DNA from: a virus
Taxonomy: Duplodnaviria; Caudoviricetes
DNA length: 64,000 nt
Strand: one strand, 5' to 3'
Virus record (IMG/VR): IMGVR_UViG_3300032240_001498
Location: 128,001-192,000 of that record
Part shown: in pieces, positions 36,972 through 43,474 of the stretch
Layout: each line of letters begins with the position of its first letter
Position numbering within the stretch: the stretch's first letter is position 1
Program-made: the position numbers and the translations under genes
Notes under the pieces: model-generated
Seen by the model: only the letters and a program-made list of their open reading frames with translations
Databases searched by the model: none
Told to the model about the DNA's origin: nothing

Positions 36972-37361
36972 TTATTTTTTGTTGGCTTTGGCTTTACCAG
37001 CTTTCATATTTGCCTCCCAGTGCGCTAATTCTGCGGCACGACCACTGTGTTTTTTGGCAAATTTACGCAGATTGCTTACACTACTTTTTGTAGGCACATG
37101 ATATCGCTTGCTATCGCCTTTGTCTTCTGGATGACGACCATTTGCAAAGTTTTCGTCAACTTGTTTTTTGATCCAAGTATCAGGTGTTAGATTATGCTTG
37201 TCGACAAACATATCATGTAATTTTTGTCCAGAAATATCTGCATCTTTACAAATTTTCTGCATGAGTTTATCTATTGAGTCGTAACTATGGCTTGGTAATT
37301 TCTTAAGTCCTTTTTCAAGTTTAAGAACAACGTCTTCAGTTATAACTTCTAGAATTCTCAT
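36972..37361 (-). CDS. Putative capsid-internal protein
   Basis: N-terminus MRILEVITE resembles T4 capsid-targeting sequences; internal VDE|N; basic C-terminal module. Confidence 0.6.
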   Translation of the reverse strand: MRILEVITEDVVLKLEKGLKKLPSHSYDSIDKLMQKICKDADISGQKLHDMFVDKHNLTPDTWIKKQVDENFANGRHPEDKGDSKRYHVPTKSSVSNLRKFAKKHSGRAAELAHWEANMKAGKAKANKK

Positions 37362-38590
37362 TTGTCTAATTTTTTACCAAGCATGACTTCAAGATAGATG
37401 TCGTATGCATCTTCTTTCATCTTCTTTTTCTTCTTTGGATGTTTGATATGAGCCCAAGCCGCACCTTCTGCTTCTTCTTTGCTCATACCAGGATGTGCCT
37501 TCATCATGCTCTTGGTAATGTGCTTTGCCTGACGATCAACTTTGGCACCTTCCATCGTAGTTGAAGTATGCTTTAGTGTACCATGACGATGCTGATGTGT
37601 GATACCGGGAATAACTTCTTCATCGGTTTCTTCTTCTTTATCAACATCTTGTTCACCGTGTACTAGGAAGTCAAACACTGTTTCAATATAATCAGATGCT
37701 AGACTAATCTTAGTCTGCACCCACGCATCCAACTGTGTGCTAGAATCCATTTGTTCTGCTAATTTAATAGCCAATTTTGCCGCAGTGATTAACTGTTGCT
37801 TGGCCATTGCGCCTTCTGTATCTGTATTTTCAAACATATCGCCTACCTCATCTCCAATCTTTGCACCAGACATCGCGCCCGATGGAGTTTTAGTTATTAA
37901 TGCTCCTGCCGCACCGCCAACAACTGCACCTTTGATGCCTTCCACCACACCTTGCTCTTTCATTAAAGAACTACCACCGTGGTGTTTTTCAATATCTTGT
38001 TCCTTACCACTAATAGAGTAGTCCATAACACCTACAATTTTATCTGTAGCCTGAGCAATTTCACTTTGAACCCAGTCTGGTAAATCTTCTCCTCTACCAA
38101 TTGCATTGTCTAAATGTGTTACTACTCGTTTGATTGTATGCAATTGATTTTTAACAAAATCGCCCTCACCATCCGAATGATTATCGGGATCAATATTTTT
38201 TAATTGTGTATCTTTAACATTGCCTTTAAATTCTTCCGCCACACTTTCATTATGCACACATTTACGAACCCGCCCACCGTTTTTGCCTTTTTTTGTACCA
38301 ACAGCATGATGATTCGGCCAGCACTTGGTAAACCCATTGGCATCCTTTTGACCTTTTTTAATTTCATTGAGCATGTCTAATTGGGCTTGGAATTTTTCTT
38401 CCATTCCCTCAGCATAGTCTTTTTTATGTTTTGTATCGCCTTGTTTCATAGCTTTCTTCTTGTCCTTATGTGCGCCTGCGCCTGTATTGATTGCGTTCTT
38501 AGCAACAAAGTTACGTGGCTTGGGTGGTTCTATTGAAGCAACCTTTTGTTTATGACGGACCTTGAATCCTCTTTTGCCTTCGTTTATCAT
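37358..38590 (-). CDS. Putative capsid-internal modular protein with duplicated D.EG...QL...WVQ..I..A.DY domain
   Basis: MINE|G start; many [ILVM]xE sites; two copies of a ~55-aa helical domain; CW...G.KK...CV module. Confidence 0.6.
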   Translation of the reverse strand: MINEGKRGFKVRHKQKVASIEPPKPRNFVAKNAINTGAGAHKDKKKAMKQGDTKHKKDYAEGMEEKFQAQLDMLNEIKKGQKDANGFTKCWPNHHAVGTKKGKNGGRVRKCVHNESVAEEFKGNVKDTQLKNIDPDNHSDGEGDFVKNQLHTIKRVVTHLDNAIGRGEDLPDWVQSEIAQATDKIVGVMDYSISGKEQDIEKHHGGSSLMKEQGVVEGIKGAVVGGAAGALITKTPSGAMSGAKIGDEVGDMFENTDTEGAMAKQQLITAAKLAIKLAEQMDSSTQLDAWVQTKISLASDYIETVFDFLVHGEQDVDKEEETDEEVIPGITHQHRHGTLKHTSTTMEGAKVDRQAKHITKSMMKAHPGMSKEEAEGAAWAHIKHPKKKKKMKEDAYDIYLEVMLGKKLDK

Positions 38591-39225
38591 ACGACTAAAT
38601 TATTCCCATCTAATGCATTTGTGCTGGGCTTTTGTTTTTTAGCCGCAGGCTGTTTTGGTGATTTCTTACCAGTACCAGAAGTCATGCTACCTGTGTAACT
38701 TTTATTGAACGCCCTGCGTTGTAGCTGATGACCAACACTACCACCACTAATTGAACCTACACCAACAACTGCTGTAGCTGATTCTTTAATACGTTTTCCG
38801 TCTTTATCATACTTGCCGGATTTTTTCTTGGCAATAGCAATAGCGGCCTGTTGTGCTCCGCCTTCTGCTATTTGTTGTTGTGTCATCTCTGCAATCATCT
38901 GTTCTCCGCGGGCAATCATGTCTGCCATTTCTTCAATGCTTTCACAATGCCAACGGCGTAAGGCCAATGCCTTTGGAGTAGGTTCACCATTGGGCTTCTT
39001 CATAGGCCCTTTGTTGCCACCCATTCTAGCACAGAATGATTTACGGCGGTTGGCAGCTTTACTGCCCTTCTTTAACTTGCTAGGCTTGGTAGTAACCGCA
39101 GTCTTTAATTTACTGCCAGGATGTTCTCTACGATAAGCGTTTACAGCCTTTTGACTTAGGCCATTTGTCTTGTCGTGATGATTGACTTTGTTCCAATCTT
39201 CTGCAATTAGTTCTGCGATTTTCAT
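38587..39225 (-). CDS. Putative capsid-internal protein (DUF6321-like module)
   Basis: Start moved to MKIAELIAE (ATGA overlap); RRKSFCARM...ALALRRWHC module. Confidence 0.6.
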   Translation of the reverse strand: MKIAELIAEDWNKVNHHDKTNGLSQKAVNAYRREHPGSKLKTAVTTKPSKLKKGSKAANRRKSFCARMGGNKGPMKKPNGEPTPKALALRRWHCESIEEMADMIARGEQMIAEMTQQQIAEGGAQQAAIAIAKKKSGKYDKDGKRIKESATAVVGVGSISGGSVGHQLQRRAFNKSYTGSMTSGTGKKSPKQPAAKKQKPSTNALDGNNLVV

Positions 39226-39518
39226 TCTTTTTTCTCTCCAGTCATGTATGGAAGACTGAACCATAACTTAAACCACTCAGGAGTTCCTGGTTGTATATTT
39301 TGTTCACGCATAATACGTGCATTCTCTGCGGCAGTAACACTTATGTTGCTACCTTGTTTTAAACTGTTCTTGTACTCTGCTAAACGTTCTTGTCCGCCTA
39401 GCCCACCTAGAAATTGTAAACGTCGGATTTCTTGTGCAGGATCATCTGGTGCTAGATATGTATCACTATCTTCTTCGATAGGTGCTATATCTGCGGATGT
39501 TATTCTGTACTGTTTCAT
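39222..39518 (-). CDS. Hypothetical protein
   Basis: 98 aa, C-terminal PGTPEWFKLWF. Confidence 0.7.
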   Translation of the reverse strand: MKQYRITSADIAPIEEDSDTYLAPDDPAQEIRRLQFLGGLGGQERLAEYKNSLKQGSNISVTAAENARIMREQNIQPGTPEWFKLWFSLPYMTGEKKE

Positions 39519-42500
39519 TTACGTTCTAATAATTTAATGTAGCCAGCTAACAAGTTTTCAACGTCTTCGCTGACTGGTACACAGTTATTTACACGTTTTG
39601 CTTCGTGTGTCGCATTACGTTCCGGACTATCTTGCATACCTACTCCAGCCATTGTTTCTGCTGGTACTTTTTGCTTGGGCAACTTAACTGGTTGTGCGGC
39701 ATCTGGATGAATACCTTTTTTAGCAGGAGCGCCTATACCCATACCTTTGCGGGTCAATTCCATTAATCTCATGATCCATTCCCTGCCTAATTTTTTAACA
39801 TCAAAACCTTGAGCCCATACAGCATATTGTTGCTCCGGAGTAGCATTAGGATCTTTTAATATATTTCGTAAATCAGTAAAACTTACACCAGTGCCACCGG
39901 CTTCGGCAGATCGTTCAGTAACATCAGGAGTGACCTTGACATGTTCATAACCTTGAAACTTATTAACAGCTTTCATTAATGCAGTCGACATGTCGTTGGC
40001 CATCTTTGCTCTATCTTTGCCAACCATGATTATAATATTTTCATAGCGGGGAGGCTGTCCTTTTAACGGATTAATCAACTCGTGTTTGACCTTTTGTAAC
40101 AAGGTACCTCCTTCCATGGTAGCACTAATATTCTTAGCGTACTCGGGATATAGTCTATGCCATGTTTGTACTTTAACAGCTGGAGGAATAGGATCATTCG
40201 GGCCTTCTGCATTACCAATAAACAAATACGGATCACCACCTACCTGCGCGGCCTTCTTGATAGTATAATCAAATAACTGTTCGTGCCCTACGTGTCCAAC
40301 AAAGCTACCAATGGCAACTACTGCTGTTTTGTTTTCTCCACGAGGGCGTTCTGTACGAGCATTTGTCTTAGCATCTTGTTTTGCTTGAATAACATTACGT
40401 TGTTCTTGACTTGTGATCTTAATAGGACCGAGACGACTGTTAATAACAATGCCCTCGTAGTCCTTGCCTAATAGATCCTTGCCGATAATATTAGGATCAT
40501 TGATGATTGCCTTTTCTAATTCAAGTTTGACCGGCTCAAGTGCGGCTTTGACCTCTGCGGCTTGATCACGCTTCTTGCTATCCAGCATGGCCTTGAACTG
40601 TTTGATGTTTTTTAGTGGCGGAACAATAGCTGTAACATCTAATGCTTTTTTCTGTGTTAGGCTGTTGTCGATAAACATGACACTACCCTGTTGCTTTAGA
40701 CTGGTTAACTGTTTGACAATATCGGCAGAGTCTGGCAAATCTTCACCAGTAGTAGCGTCGGTGACTCGGAATGGCACAAATGCTATCTTTACACCCTTGG
40801 GTAATTTATCATAGTGTATGCCTACGAATACCAGTTTACCTTCCTTAGTTTCTTTTGCAAAGTTTATATCTAACACTTCGCAGGTAACTTGTTTATTGAC
40901 TAAGAATTCTTTACCCAGCTGTTGATCGATAATTTTTATAGCGACCATGTAGTCATTAAACTGCTCGTCAAATTTCTCGCTCATGGCCACGCTTTCTGGG
41001 CCCATAAAGTCTAGCACTTCTTTATCGGTAATTGACTTTAGTTCTGGATCGTTATCATCTATGCTGTTTGGATCTTCAATACCTTTTTGCTTAGCCAGTA
41101 AGCGTTTCCTAAACCTAGCAATATTGCCTTTTAAGAATCCGCCTGCATATCTTGGTTCAGTGCGACTGGTACCCATGAAAGGTCTGCCTTCGGCATTCTT
41201 ACCAAAGCGTCCGCCCATACCATCTACTTTAACATTTAAAGGAATATTTTTTAATTGAAATTGATCATTACCCTGATGCAGTTCATCTAGTAGGTCCAAA
41301 AAATCTGCACTCTTTAGGTCTTTTAGATGTGGCATGCCTTTTCGCAACTGAGATTTTACTGCCGGCTGTTCTTCGGCTTCGTTAACTGGTGTTGATTGTT
41401 TTGCGGCTTTCTTATTAGTAAATGCTTGCTCGTATGCCATTGCGGTATTAATGGCTTCTTTTCTTAATCCTCGTGCGTTCGGTAACTTCAGATGCTCTAC
41501 CATGTAATCAATGGCGGCCATCTTGGTATCGCGATCTCTAACAGGATCGTTTTTTGTAATCATTTGTGAGCCGGGCTCGAAGCATATACTTACAAAACGA
41601 CGGAACAGTTCCGTGCGTTGATTGTCGTCTAGATATTTTGTAGCGAGTTGTACAGTTCCAATGAAACTGTTCTTAAGTTGTTGATCTTGTTTATTTGGTT
41701 TCTGCCCAAAGAAGATTTCAAATTGTTGAGCTAGATTTTTAATATACTGTCTACTATCTGTTGGTAATAGTTGCATTACTGGTATACCGTCTTTTTCCAT
41801 AGGCTCGCCAGTATTAGGGTCATTGTAAGGAATATATTTCTGACTTACTCCACCACCACCTTGACCACTGACTGCAAAACTGTAGTCGCTGTCCGTAACC
41901 GGCTCGTCGCTGATTTTTGTACCCTTCTTCAATACACGAGCAACATACTTGGTGCTTACATTTGCGGCATACGGTAAAGCACGATCGATATACTTATGGA
42001 ATACACCTTTAATACCAGCAGACAAATCTTCCCATGCACTACTATGACTGTAGTCTTGCCACGGTGTTGGTAGCCCAGTCTTTGCATCGTGTTCGCCGTA
42101 TTCAAAATCAATCTGTAATTTAACCGGCAAGTCATTTAATGTAACTTGCCACATACTTGAATATTGATTATTACCTGGACTAAATCCGATAAAAACAGTA
42201 TTGCCAACTTTTTTACCAATTAATCCTGTTAAGAATTGTTTAATAGTTTCTTCATGTTTGTCTGGAGCCTGCGTATCAATATCACCTACTTTAGGTTTAA
42301 CGCGAACAAATTCTTCATCGGGAATTTTTTTATCAAAGAATTTTGCAGTACTACCGCTTAGGAACTTTTGTGCCGCCACAGAATTTTCATGCCAAAGGGG
42401 TTCTTTAAATCGTTGTGCAAATAAATCGTTAATATTATGCAACAAATCGGACAATACTTGTACTACATATGAACGATCGTGTACTCGTAGATCTAACTCT

Positions 42501-42625
42501 TGTGCTTGGTGTTGTCCCGGGATACCTTGCCAACCAGGCATAGGAGTACCATCGTCTTTATGACTGGATTGATTGCCGCCTTCTGACAAGAGGCGCGGTC
42601 TAGAAAATAACTCTAGTAATTTCAT
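39515..42625 (-). CDS. Multidomain protein: Pol-beta-type NTase + ligase-type (KxDG) NTase + HxGH NTase, with capsid-targeting-like N-terminus
   Basis: LSGS...GDID...QIDF; VKVDG...TCEV...EGIVI...IKI; GSFVGHVGH; LSE|GG and VNE|A candidate cleavage sites. Confidence 0.7.
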   Translation of the reverse strand: MKLLELFSRPRLLSEGGNQSSHKDDGTPMPGWQGIPGQHQAQELDLRVHDRSYVVQVLSDLLHNINDLFAQRFKEPLWHENSVAAQKFLSGSTAKFFDKKIPDEEFVRVKPKVGDIDTQAPDKHEETIKQFLTGLIGKKVGNTVFIGFSPGNNQYSSMWQVTLNDLPVKLQIDFEYGEHDAKTGLPTPWQDYSHSSAWEDLSAGIKGVFHKYIDRALPYAANVSTKYVARVLKKGTKISDEPVTDSDYSFAVSGQGGGGVSQKYIPYNDPNTGEPMEKDGIPVMQLLPTDSRQYIKNLAQQFEIFFGQKPNKQDQQLKNSFIGTVQLATKYLDDNQRTELFRRFVSICFEPGSQMITKNDPVRDRDTKMAAIDYMVEHLKLPNARGLRKEAINTAMAYEQAFTNKKAAKQSTPVNEAEEQPAVKSQLRKGMPHLKDLKSADFLDLLDELHQGNDQFQLKNIPLNVKVDGMGGRFGKNAEGRPFMGTSRTEPRYAGGFLKGNIARFRKRLLAKQKGIEDPNSIDDNDPELKSITDKEVLDFMGPESVAMSEKFDEQFNDYMVAIKIIDQQLGKEFLVNKQVTCEVLDINFAKETKEGKLVFVGIHYDKLPKGVKIAFVPFRVTDATTGEDLPDSADIVKQLTSLKQQGSVMFIDNSLTQKKALDVTAIVPPLKNIKQFKAMLDSKKRDQAAEVKAALEPVKLELEKAIINDPNIIGKDLLGKDYEGIVINSRLGPIKITSQEQRNVIQAKQDAKTNARTERPRGENKTAVVAIGSFVGHVGHEQLFDYTIKKAAQVGGDPYLFIGNAEGPNDPIPPAVKVQTWHRLYPEYAKNISATMEGGTLLQKVKHELINPLKGQPPRYENIIIMVGKDRAKMANDMSTALMKAVNKFQGYEHVKVTPDVTERSAEAGGTGVSFTDLRNILKDPNATPEQQYAVWAQGFDVKKLGREWIMRLMELTRKGMGIGAPAKKGIHPDAAQPVKLPKQKVPAETMAGVGMQDSPERNATHEAKRVNNCVPVSEDVENLLAGYIKLLERK

Positions 42626-42993
42626 GGACGGTATTCGCCTTTCTTAATATCTTTGCGATAGTGATCGTCTAGCATGTTGCATAGTTCTTCACACATCTCT
42701 TTGTTGAATACTTCTTGGGGGTGTTGTAGCATTTTGTTGGCATTATGGAATTCCATACAGCCTTTCTTAACCATTGGCATCCATACATTTGCTGTTGAAT
42801 CGTCGGTCATCTGTTCTGCAATATCATGGAACTGTTTACGATGGATATCGTCATGATCTAGAATATAAAAGAACAACTCGTTCTTAAATTGGTCTTTTTC
42901 TTCAAGACTCATTGTATACTTTTCGTCTGCTGTCTTGTCTTTGTTCTGATCAGAGTTGACATTAAGGTGGCTAAAAAATTCGTATAGTTTCAT
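42622..42993 (-). CDS. Putative capsid-internal/hypothetical protein
   Basis: N-terminus MKLYEFF resembles T4 internal-protein targeting sequence. Confidence 0.6.
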   Translation of the reverse strand: MKLYEFFSHLNVNSDQNKDKTADEKYTMSLEEKDQFKNELFFYILDHDDIHRKQFHDIAEQMTDDSTANVWMPMVKKGCMEFHNANKMLQHPQEVFNKEMCEELCNMLDDHYRKDIKKGEYRP

Positions 42994-42995
42994 GA

Positions 42996-43442
42996 TTAAA
43001 AATTATAGTTAATAGCCAATAGTGCGCCTTGGCTGATATTGACATTTGCACGTACCCAAGTAAAGTTACCTACAAAGGTTAATGCTACTGTTGAAGTTGT
43101 TTGTAAATTCTGATTATAAAGATACGTTTTTGCTGTATCTTTGACAGGAAACCAGTCAGTTTCTATAGGGTTTGAGGCTAATGTGGCCTGCATAGTAACT
43201 GTGCCTACATAATCTTGTGTTGTCTTGTATGTAACGGTGTGCAATCCGCTACTGATTCCATAATACCCGCAACCTTTTTCTTTGTTGCTAGGGAATGTTA
43301 GAACATTATATGGGGGATTAAATGTGCTTTGATTGTGATAATATGCTGGCATACTTAACACGCTGGTCGTTGTTAAGACCGCTGTAGTACCAGTAGTATA
43401 GATATCTGTATAGAAACTTAGAGTTGTGCTTTGTGCCGGCAT
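42996..43442 (-). CDS. Putative virion structural protein
   Basis: Beta-rich 148 aa, first gene after a TAAATA promoter, AAGGA SD. Confidence 0.55.
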   Translation of the reverse strand: MPAQSTTLSFYTDIYTTGTTAVLTTTSVLSMPAYYHNQSTFNPPYNVLTFPSNKEKGCGYYGISSGLHTVTYKTTQDYVGTVTMQATLASNPIETDWFPVKDTAKTYLYNQNLQTTSTVALTFVGNFTWVRANVNISQGALLAINYNF

Positions 43443-43457
43443 AGTTTTTCCTTACGC

Positions 43458-43474
43458 CCTGTATTTATTACAGG
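43458..43474 (-). promoter_or_regulatory. Late-type promoter (TAAATA) inside a 6-bp inverted repeat
   Basis: CCTGTA-ATAAA-TACAGG; TAAATA at 43462-43467. Confidence 0.55.

Follow-up and report, generated by a model that had tools for sequence, protein, structure and literature searches.

What use would a T4-type phage have for a single protein that carries three different nucleotidyltransferases behind a short leader? The question is raised by an open reading frame (ORF) in the viral record IMGVR_UViG_3300032240_001498, of which bases 128001-192000 were analysed. This stretch of 64,000 nucleotides is referred to as the window, and coordinates are those of the window unless stated otherwise. 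The whole record is 200.6 kb long and comes from a T4-type phage, encoding a gp23-type capsid protein and a gp21-type prohead protease; CheckV estimates it to be 55% complete, so that gene absences may reflect incompleteness. The ORF specifies a protein of 1036 residues, here called P0001, with three nucleotidyltransferase (NTase) modules in one chain. An initial annotation, made from the DNA letters, had described it as a probable virion-packaged polyprotein of three unrelated NTase folds, and the ORF and every motif in that description were confirmed at their coordinates. We consider the chances somewhat better than even that P0001 is a cargo polyprotein of the phage head, which would be loaded, cut and injected. 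The parts of the ORF are as follows (a slash within a motif marks the predicted cut).

39515-42625, minus strand: whole ORF of P0001, 1036 residues
42581-42625, minus strand: leader, residues 1-15 (MKLLELF...LSE), a putative propeptide for capsid targeting, with an L-x-E site at its end
41378-42580, minus strand: domain i, residues 16-416, NTase of the Pol-beta fold (predicted structure, invariant motifs)
41378-41380, minus strand: codon of E416, P1 residue of the predicted V-N-E/A cut, a site conserved in relatives
40376-41377, minus strand: domain ii, residues 417-750, Rnl-type ligase adenylyltransferase (predicted structure, motifs)
39731-40375, minus strand: domain iii, residues 751-965, HIGH-motif, cytidylyltransferase-like NTase (profile homology)
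39566-39730, minus strand: basic linker and degenerate CW.GY..GTK..V.NCV module, residues 966-1020, ending V-S-E1020 (alignment of C-termini)
39518-39565, minus strand: C-terminal amphipathic peptide, residues 1021-1036, possibly a C-terminal propeptide

The three modules and their families

P0001 has at least 769 homologues according to a word-indexed search, mostly from viral contigs of 100-340 kb. The best 120 are 51-85% identical to P0001 and colinear with it over about 960 residues. The C-terminal tails differ in length and content among the relatives, some of which have LysM, DUF6321 or dCMP deaminase domains; the longest totals 1742 residues. Motif conservation was scored on 28 aligned homologues (57-85% identity). 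Invariant in this alignment are G91-S92, D115, D117, D173, K466-x-D468-G469, E583, E724-G725, K736 and H778-x-G780-H781, and also the tetrad E15-G16-G17-N18 and E416. Because of this invariance, the motifs are not chance words.

The model of domain i has a predicted local distance difference test score (pLDDT) of 89.8. It was compared exhaustively with 48,161 representatives of the PDB, and nearly all of the 50 best are NTases of the Pol-beta fold. The matches include TUT7 (Z 7.9), TdT (Z 7.5 over 198 residues) and Pol beta (Z 7.0 over 192 residues), together with TUT1, GLD-2, OAS2 and Pol lambda/mu. The top Z-score is below 8. The fold assignment is therefore based on three observations: the uniformity of the hit list, a match (E 1.4e-5) to the AFDB cluster 'polymerase nucleotidyl transferase domain', and an invariant motif set of G-S, D-x-D and D. 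This set comprises G91-S92 (about 42355), D115-I-D117 and the D173 of QIDF (about 42109), where the spacing from G-S to D-x-D, 22 residues, is above the usual. Domain i also matches phrog_19290 (E 1e-31). Foldseek E-values were weak for the models of domains i and ii (0.004 or worse), so both assignments draw on hit-list uniformity and VIA Z-scores. Taken together, the modelling supports a Pol-beta NTase fold for domain i. Membership of the RlaP family was considered and rejected, since PF10127 has no match in P0001 at E <=1 and none in the genome at E <=0.1.

The motifs of domain ii stand in the order found in ligases, namely K466-VDG (about 41230), TCEV at residues 581-584, E724-GIVI (about 40456) and IKI at residues 735-737, with K466, E583, E724-G725 and K736 representing ligase motifs I, III, IV and V. 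In the model (pLDDT 88.0) motifs I and III are separated by a long helical insert. All the structural matches listed are ATP-dependent ligases: the nick-sealing RNA ligase Rnl5 of Naegleria gruberi (NgrRnl, 5cot) aligns with Z 10.6 and a root-mean-square deviation of 3.3 over 189 residues, and re-alignment gave Z 8.9 for trypanosome REL1, 8.8 for T4 Rnl2 and 8.5 for the Pnkp ligase domain. Domain ii resembles Rnl5, Rnl2 and REL1 in fold and motif order, but differs from them in its identity of 10-15%, its helical insert, its single motif V lysine and the absence of an OB or other known nucleic-acid-binding domain. The curated ligase models of Pfam and NCBIfam did not match domain ii, and sequence searches of the PDB returned nothing for the whole of P0001, for domain i or for domain ii. 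A relative outside the immediate family is WEM34319 of Xanthomonas phage X1 (hhalign 96.6%, E 6e-10; hmmsearch E 3e-13), and in a search of 1.84 billion representatives the domain ii profile found 221 clusters at 50% identity. An ATP-dependent ligase adenylyltransferase fold is thus supported for domain ii by its predicted structure.

Domain iii was recognised by profile homology. Its HIGH motif is GSFVGHVGH at residues 773-781 (about 40300), containing H778-V-G-H781, and its second signature motif is S-F-T-D-L-R920; both are invariant or nearly so. The domain matches phrog_3041, 'cytidyltransferase', with E 2.4e-13, and the HIGH-motif region of RibF with E 0.007. Its family profile matches the P-SSM2 protein PSSM2_194 (E 9e-12), which itself matches PF01467 above threshold. 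There is no direct match to PF01467 in P0001, so that the link to PF01467 goes via phrog_3041 and PSSM2_194; the only family found in a Pfam scan of P0001 was FAD_syn (E 0.023), at 14.9-17.4 bits and under its cut-off. With tblastn, domain iii reached the 'cytidylyltransferase' of T4-like cyanophages with E-values down to 3e-6 over 84-92% of the domain, and more than 200 cyanophage records have stand-alone homologues. The evidence supports a cytidylyltransferase-like HIGH NTase. NMN adenylyltransferase (NMNAT) identity is not supported: domain iii matches no NMNAT model, and NCBIfam has no match at all for P0001, hence no NMNAT equivalog. The stand-alone NTase of phage X1 gave N-terminal, sub-threshold matches to NMNAT models. 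Comparison of the domain iii profile with this X1 protein by hhalign was not significant, and the link between them therefore relies on their shared phrog_3041. Searches made with domain ii or domain iii alone at matched protein length returned mostly gene fragments from short contigs.

The idea of three unrelated NTase folds is thus upheld, for domains i and ii by structure prediction and for domain iii by profile homology; the structure prediction and fold search suggested in the initial annotation were run on domains i and ii and found the expected folds.

The leader, the predicted cut sites and the phage head

T4 packages Alt and its internal proteins by means of an N-terminal targeting sequence of about 10 residues, in which targeting depends on residues 4 and 7 and cleavage on residues 8 and 10. 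The protease gp21 recognises L/I-x-E and cleaves behind it; in Alt, both termini are trimmed (PMC9026906; PMC3012670). The N-termini in the T4 genome (NC_000866) are MKTYQEFIAE for IPII and IPIII and MELITELFDE for Alt. The leader of P0001 meets this pattern, with L4, F7 and L13-S-E15 directly before GGN, and pLDDT is <50 at residues 1-10.

Across the relatives the leader is 12-58 residues long and keeps only its M-x-L-x-[EDQ]-[LIF]-[FI] start, and wherever GGN lies near the N-terminus, which is so in 102 relatives, [LIVM]xE directly precedes it. The homologue CP21_014 of Campylobacter phage CP21, 30% identical to domain i, has a leader of the same type and an I-L-E/GGN junction. The domain i homologues of Xanthomonas phage X1 and Vibrio phage phiKT1024 are leaderless and start MGGN, and both phages encode the protease. 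The predicted cleavage after E15 would thus give an N-terminus equal to that of the leaderless enzymes after methionine removal. In the metagenomic relative P0292, where domain i follows domain ii, the junction is again I-L-E/GGN. P0307, also metagenomic, in which the ligase comes first and the Pol-beta NTase second, has a junction L-M-E/GGH. From these two junctions, the cut site appears to travel with domain i.

These observations bear on a simpler explanation, that P0001 is an uncut and unpackaged cytoplasmic enzyme of nucleic-acid repair or nucleotide metabolism, whose leader and linker are an ordinary helix and hinge. In X1 and the Vibrio phage the leaderless homologues presumably act in the cytoplasm, which means that the enzymes can work unpackaged; the gene sits among replication and chaperone genes; and a three-residue motif is weak evidence. 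What this explanation does not account for is that a leader so variable has [LIVM]xE as its last residues in every case, precisely at the point where the leaderless homologues start, nor does it fit the distribution of the internal sites. Such a site lies within 12 residues before the ligase domain in 119 of 120 relatives, often as a tandem pair and mostly followed by Ala, whereas none of 108 relatives has one in the 40 residues before the HIGH motif; these sequences are kin, so that the counts overstate independence. The pre-ligase site is present even where unrelated modules come before it. In the 28-sequence alignment the only conserved sites are E15, E416 and E448, of which E448 lies within a helix. 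Inside the three domains the cut motif occurs across the family at 0.45, 0.69 and 0.61 of expectation, compared with 1.18 genome-wide.

In some relatives the modules are separate genes. On contig L010, a 390-residue domain i gene and a 298-residue domain ii gene overlap by 4 nt, each with a T4-type leader, so that the internal site of the polyprotein is a gene boundary elsewhere; a split at the VNE/A junction had been suggested as a check, and here it is found. There are also many stand-alone domain ii proteins of about 300 residues, with leaders such as MKTFKQFLSE, near the T4 IPIII pattern. Leaders this close to the IPIII targeting sequence, on modules that stand alone, are again not what would be expected of a cytoplasmic enzyme.

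Cuts are accordingly predicted from sequence patterns after E15, after E416 and probably after E1020, with none between the ligase and HIGH domains. Two product enzymes would result, not three. As to the third site, an [VI]-[SG]-E ahead of the last 16 residues is kept in the family tail alignment. The C-terminus of T4 Alt is also trimmed by gp21 (PMC9026906), and by analogy the C-terminal 16 residues of P0001 may be removed after E1020.

The gp21-type protease, Peptidase_S77 (PF03420), is encoded at G000:C1:91138-91572 (90.6 bits, E 1e-26), within a gene that spans G000:C1:91006-91644. L/I-x-E sites occur at the expected places in the capsid and scaffold proteins: L-I-E/S is found at residue 42 of the major capsid protein, and in the scaffold protein 23 cut-motif sites occur where 9.8 would be expected. 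About seven proteins of the genome start with leaders of this kind, and several of them adjoin P0001. The sequence ATAAATA stands 8-46 nt ahead of 18 gene starts genome-wide, many of them belonging to large genes that look structural, and is likely to be the late promoter core of the phage. One such box, at 43462-43468 on the minus strand, heads the tightly packed gene string that contains P0001.

Homologues of domain iii have been detected in virions. The cyanophage proteins carry the leaders MKSFSQFLTE (P-SSM2) and MKNFSSFLTE (S-CREM2 gp154), and the cytidylyltransferases of S-CREM2 (gp154) and S-SZBM1 were identified by mass spectrometry in CsCl-purified virions; NMNAT-like proteins were detected in S-CBWM1 and S-SCSM1 (PMC10665884; PMC9146016). 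That leader-bearing homologues are found there (PMC10665884) argues further against a purely cytoplasmic P0001.

Besides the kinship of the sequences compared, a number of points weigh against packaging and cutting. The authors of the cyanophage studies caution that abundant proteins may be carried over and that the enzymes they detected may be contaminants (PMC10665884; PMC9146016), and the virion mass spectrometry covers cyanophage domain iii homologues only. The leader of P0001 has 15 residues compared with 10 in T4. The cut motif is three residues long and so a weak signal, and P0001 alone has 8 sites where 12.9 would be expected, which is no significant deficit (p 0.10). GGN is itself invariant, and conservation of the first site may partly serve the enzyme. 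The locus lies between the DNA polymerase and the ClpA and deformylase genes, outside the head module, and TATAAATA, the T4 late box in its exact form, shows no enrichment in the window (2 against 6 expected).

On balance, packaging and processing of P0001 is rather probable from the comparative evidence, and the cytoplasmic explanation unlikely. In the sequence of events that we propose, P0001 would be made late in infection and its 15-residue leader would take it into the prohead scaffolding core, where the gp21-type protease would cut it at the sites given above. The first product would be the Pol-beta-fold NTase from G16-G-N onwards (residues 16-416, about 45 kDa), and the second the ligase-type adenylyltransferase joined to the HIGH NTase and the basic tail (residues 417-1020, about 67 kDa). 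Both enzymes would exit the head together with the DNA and be active in the host ahead of phage gene expression. The virion-packaged, cut polyprotein of the initial annotation gains much comparative support from the leader, the cut sites, the MGGN homologues, the split genes, the protease, the promoter-like box and the cyanophage mass spectrometry; its predicted number of products has to be changed, to two.

Possible functions of the enzymes

RlaP adds one or two nucleoside monophosphates to damaged RNA 3'-OH ends before sealing, and accompanies RNA ligases (PMC7824862; bioRxiv 10.64898/2025.12.29.696909). Domain i possibly works like RlaP, though family membership fails. The pairs of RlaP (PF10127) and RNA ligase in bacteria and jumbo phages are like P0001 in tying a Pol-beta NTase to an ATP-dependent enzyme of the RNA-ligase type, but P0001 has no PF10127 or Pfam ligase match, and it differs also in the head-targeting leaders, in the added HIGH NTase and in that no end-healing gene was found.

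From the folds and this RlaP-like arrangement, we tentatively suggest that domain i would extend 3'-OH ends and that RNA (or DNA) broken into 3'-OH and 5'-phosphate ends would be sealed by the ligase, for which the HIGH domain would produce or handle an adenylylated cofactor. A fuller version of this proposal, more doubtful again, is that aquatic T4-like phages inject an end-repair kit, consisting of a 3'-extending NTase and a ligase fused to a cofactor-making adenylyltransferase, which would undo the damage done by host nucleases (cuts in tRNA or mRNA, nicks in the incoming DNA) ahead of the earliest phage gene expression, with the cut linkers setting the enzyme dose.

Several findings count against such a pathway. 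Domain i falls outside PF10127, and searches of the 200.6-kb record turned up no clear polynucleotide kinase (PNK), phosphatase, RtcB, Rnl2 or further RNA ligase. Domain i occurs without a ligase in Campylobacter and Vibrio phages, and domain iii without domains i and ii in cyanophages; since these domains occur apart, the three modules need not form one pathway. The functions proposed initially, RNA repair or tailing, NAD or signal-nucleotide metabolism and anti-defence, are speculative; domain iii is not recognisable as an NMNAT, and the end-healing enzymes of a repair system were not found in the record.

There is a minority chance that P0001 is packaged and cut, and that its modules are unrelated cargo which share one leader and have separate host targets, with no common pathway. 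This would explain why each module is also met by itself (domain i in phages of Campylobacter and Vibrio, domain iii in the cyanophage records, domain ii in many stand-alone proteins), why their order is reversed in P0292 and P0307, and why other modules are fused in relatives, including a DUF6267-type second ligase, a ParB-like domain, dCMP deaminase and LysM. It is harder to reconcile with phage X1, which keeps the modules as leaderless neighbours in the same order: its colinear operon encodes domain i, a 334-residue protein, domain ii and a PF01467 protein of the PHROG of domain iii. Fusions of ligase and HIGH domains also recur, with two HIGH subtypes and never with a cut site between them. 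The X1 operon and the uncut fusions indicate a real coupling, at least of domains ii and iii.

The 334-residue X1 protein (WEM34318, L004:5987-6991) has a perfect ligase motif I, K-V-D-G-E-R, and no family or PDB match, and judging by this motif it may be a second covalent NTase of that operon.

A further alternative, distinctly improbable in our view, is that the injected NTases would AMPylate or NMPylate host proteins or small molecules and so disarm the host, in the manner of Alt. Pol-beta folds do include protein- and antibiotic-modifying enzymes, and the structural neighbours of domain i include ANT(2''), LnuA, MenT and AbiEii-type toxins; moreover, Alt, the one enzyme in the T4 head cargo that has been studied well, modifies proteins (PMC9026906). 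The best and longest matches of domain i, however, extend RNA or DNA (terminal uridylyltransferases, TdT, Pol X), and its partner has a polynucleotide-ligase fold with all the ligase motifs. An end-repair role for the enzymes remains the reading that we develop here, at the tentative level given above.

Neighbouring genes, known systems and wider meaning

The genes beside P0001 encode a gp43-like family B DNA polymerase, a ClpA/B-like ATPase and a peptide deformylase. In its immediate surroundings are the following features.

43462-43468, minus strand: late-promoter-like box ATAAATA, 26 nt before the ORF at 42996-43442, at the head of the gene string
42622-42993, minus strand: 123-residue ORF upstream of P0001, N-terminus MKLYEFF..., whose stop overlaps the P0001 start (ATGA)
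36972-39518, minus strand: downstream region of three ORFs with starts like capsid-targeting sequences (38587-39264, 37358-38590 and 36972-37361)
38587-39264, minus strand: DUF6321 ORF, in which an internal start at Met14 gives MKIAELIAE, near the T4 internal-protein targeting sequence
37358-38590, minus strand: 410-residue ORF carrying a CW...CV module, matched at residues 89-112
36972-37361, minus strand: ORF starting MRILEVITE, like a capsid-targeting sequence

The NCVP module at the end of P0001 had been related to one in the protein at 37358-38590. The relationship is real but weak: a hidden Markov model of the family C-termini matches residues 89-112 of that protein with E 2.4e-5 among 644 ORFs, and BLAST finds no similarity between it and the P0001 tail. 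Most family members end in a basic module with two cysteines, C-W-x-G-Y...G-T-K...V-x-N-C-V, followed by an acidic helix, and this module may bind DNA or the scaffolding core. DUF6321, seen in the neighbouring ORF at 38587-39264, is fused C-terminally in some relatives of P0001.

Elsewhere in the genome, outside the window, N-termini like the T4 targeting sequence are found at G000:C1 34050-34637 (MKTFKEYLSE), 43021-43416 (MKIRELME) and 98440-99189 (MKITELVME), and on these starts the three ORFs are candidate internal head proteins. In Melnitz, a Methylophilales phage, gene 16 (L006:3329-4585) belongs to DUF6267 (Pfam E 4e-105) and has a targeting-type leader and the ligase motifs K-W-D-G, E-G-F-V and V-K-L-V. 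From these features DUF6267 looks like another head-loaded, ligase-like family; it is absent from the genome record of P0001. Melnitz genes 15, 17, 18 and 22 also begin with targeting-type leaders. CP21_014 of Campylobacter phage CP21 (L002 5002-7161) adjoins a radical SAM gene, and every isolate in which a domain i homologue was found comes from a phage group that has 7-deazaguanine genes, perhaps by coincidence. A link to 7-deazaguanine DNA modification, suggested by genes in Campylobacter and Xanthomonas phages and in the present genome, was dropped as mere co-occurrence in large phages.

A close parallel is provided by T4 Alt and IPI-III, which share with P0001 the hydrophobic leader positions 4 and 7, the hydrophobic-x-Glu end and a gp21-type protease. 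Alt is in addition an enzyme cargo, and the C-terminal trimming that it undergoes is possible in P0001 too. The neighbour genes of P0001 bear leaders similar to its own and to those of the T4 internal proteins. In contrast, T4 cargo consists of single units and includes no NTase or ligase, whereas P0001 is a chain of three NTases with a predicted internal cut site and a 15-residue leader. The cyanophage cytidylyltransferases (PSSM2_194, S-CREM2 gp154 and S-SZBM1_140; phrog_3041, PF01467) resemble domain iii in sequence, in the H-x-G-H motif and in their T4-type leader, but are single enzymes that lack the ligase and Pol-beta modules, and the name 'NMNAT-like' is mere annotation.

The principle of loading and processing is therefore already known from T4 Alt and the internal proteins. 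What is new is a cargo of three NTase families without characterised members, and a polyprotein layout with a predicted internal cut site. In the literature searched, no such polyprotein is described, beyond the unexplained virion 'cytidylyltransferase' of cyanophages, and for the repeated detection of that protein a testable explanation is now offered. Three uncharacterised enzyme families with clear active sites are defined, and the natural leaders and linkers could be used to load foreign proteins into T4-type capsids.

Proteins that are packaged in the head and injected meet the host before other phage products. In T4 they are small anti-restriction proteins and one ADP-ribosyltransferase, Alt, which ADP-ribosylates RNA polymerase. 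If the reading proposed here is true, nucleotidyltransferases and a ligase would join the injected arsenal of T4-type phages, and such phages would load several enzymes with one tag by means of protease-cut polyproteins.

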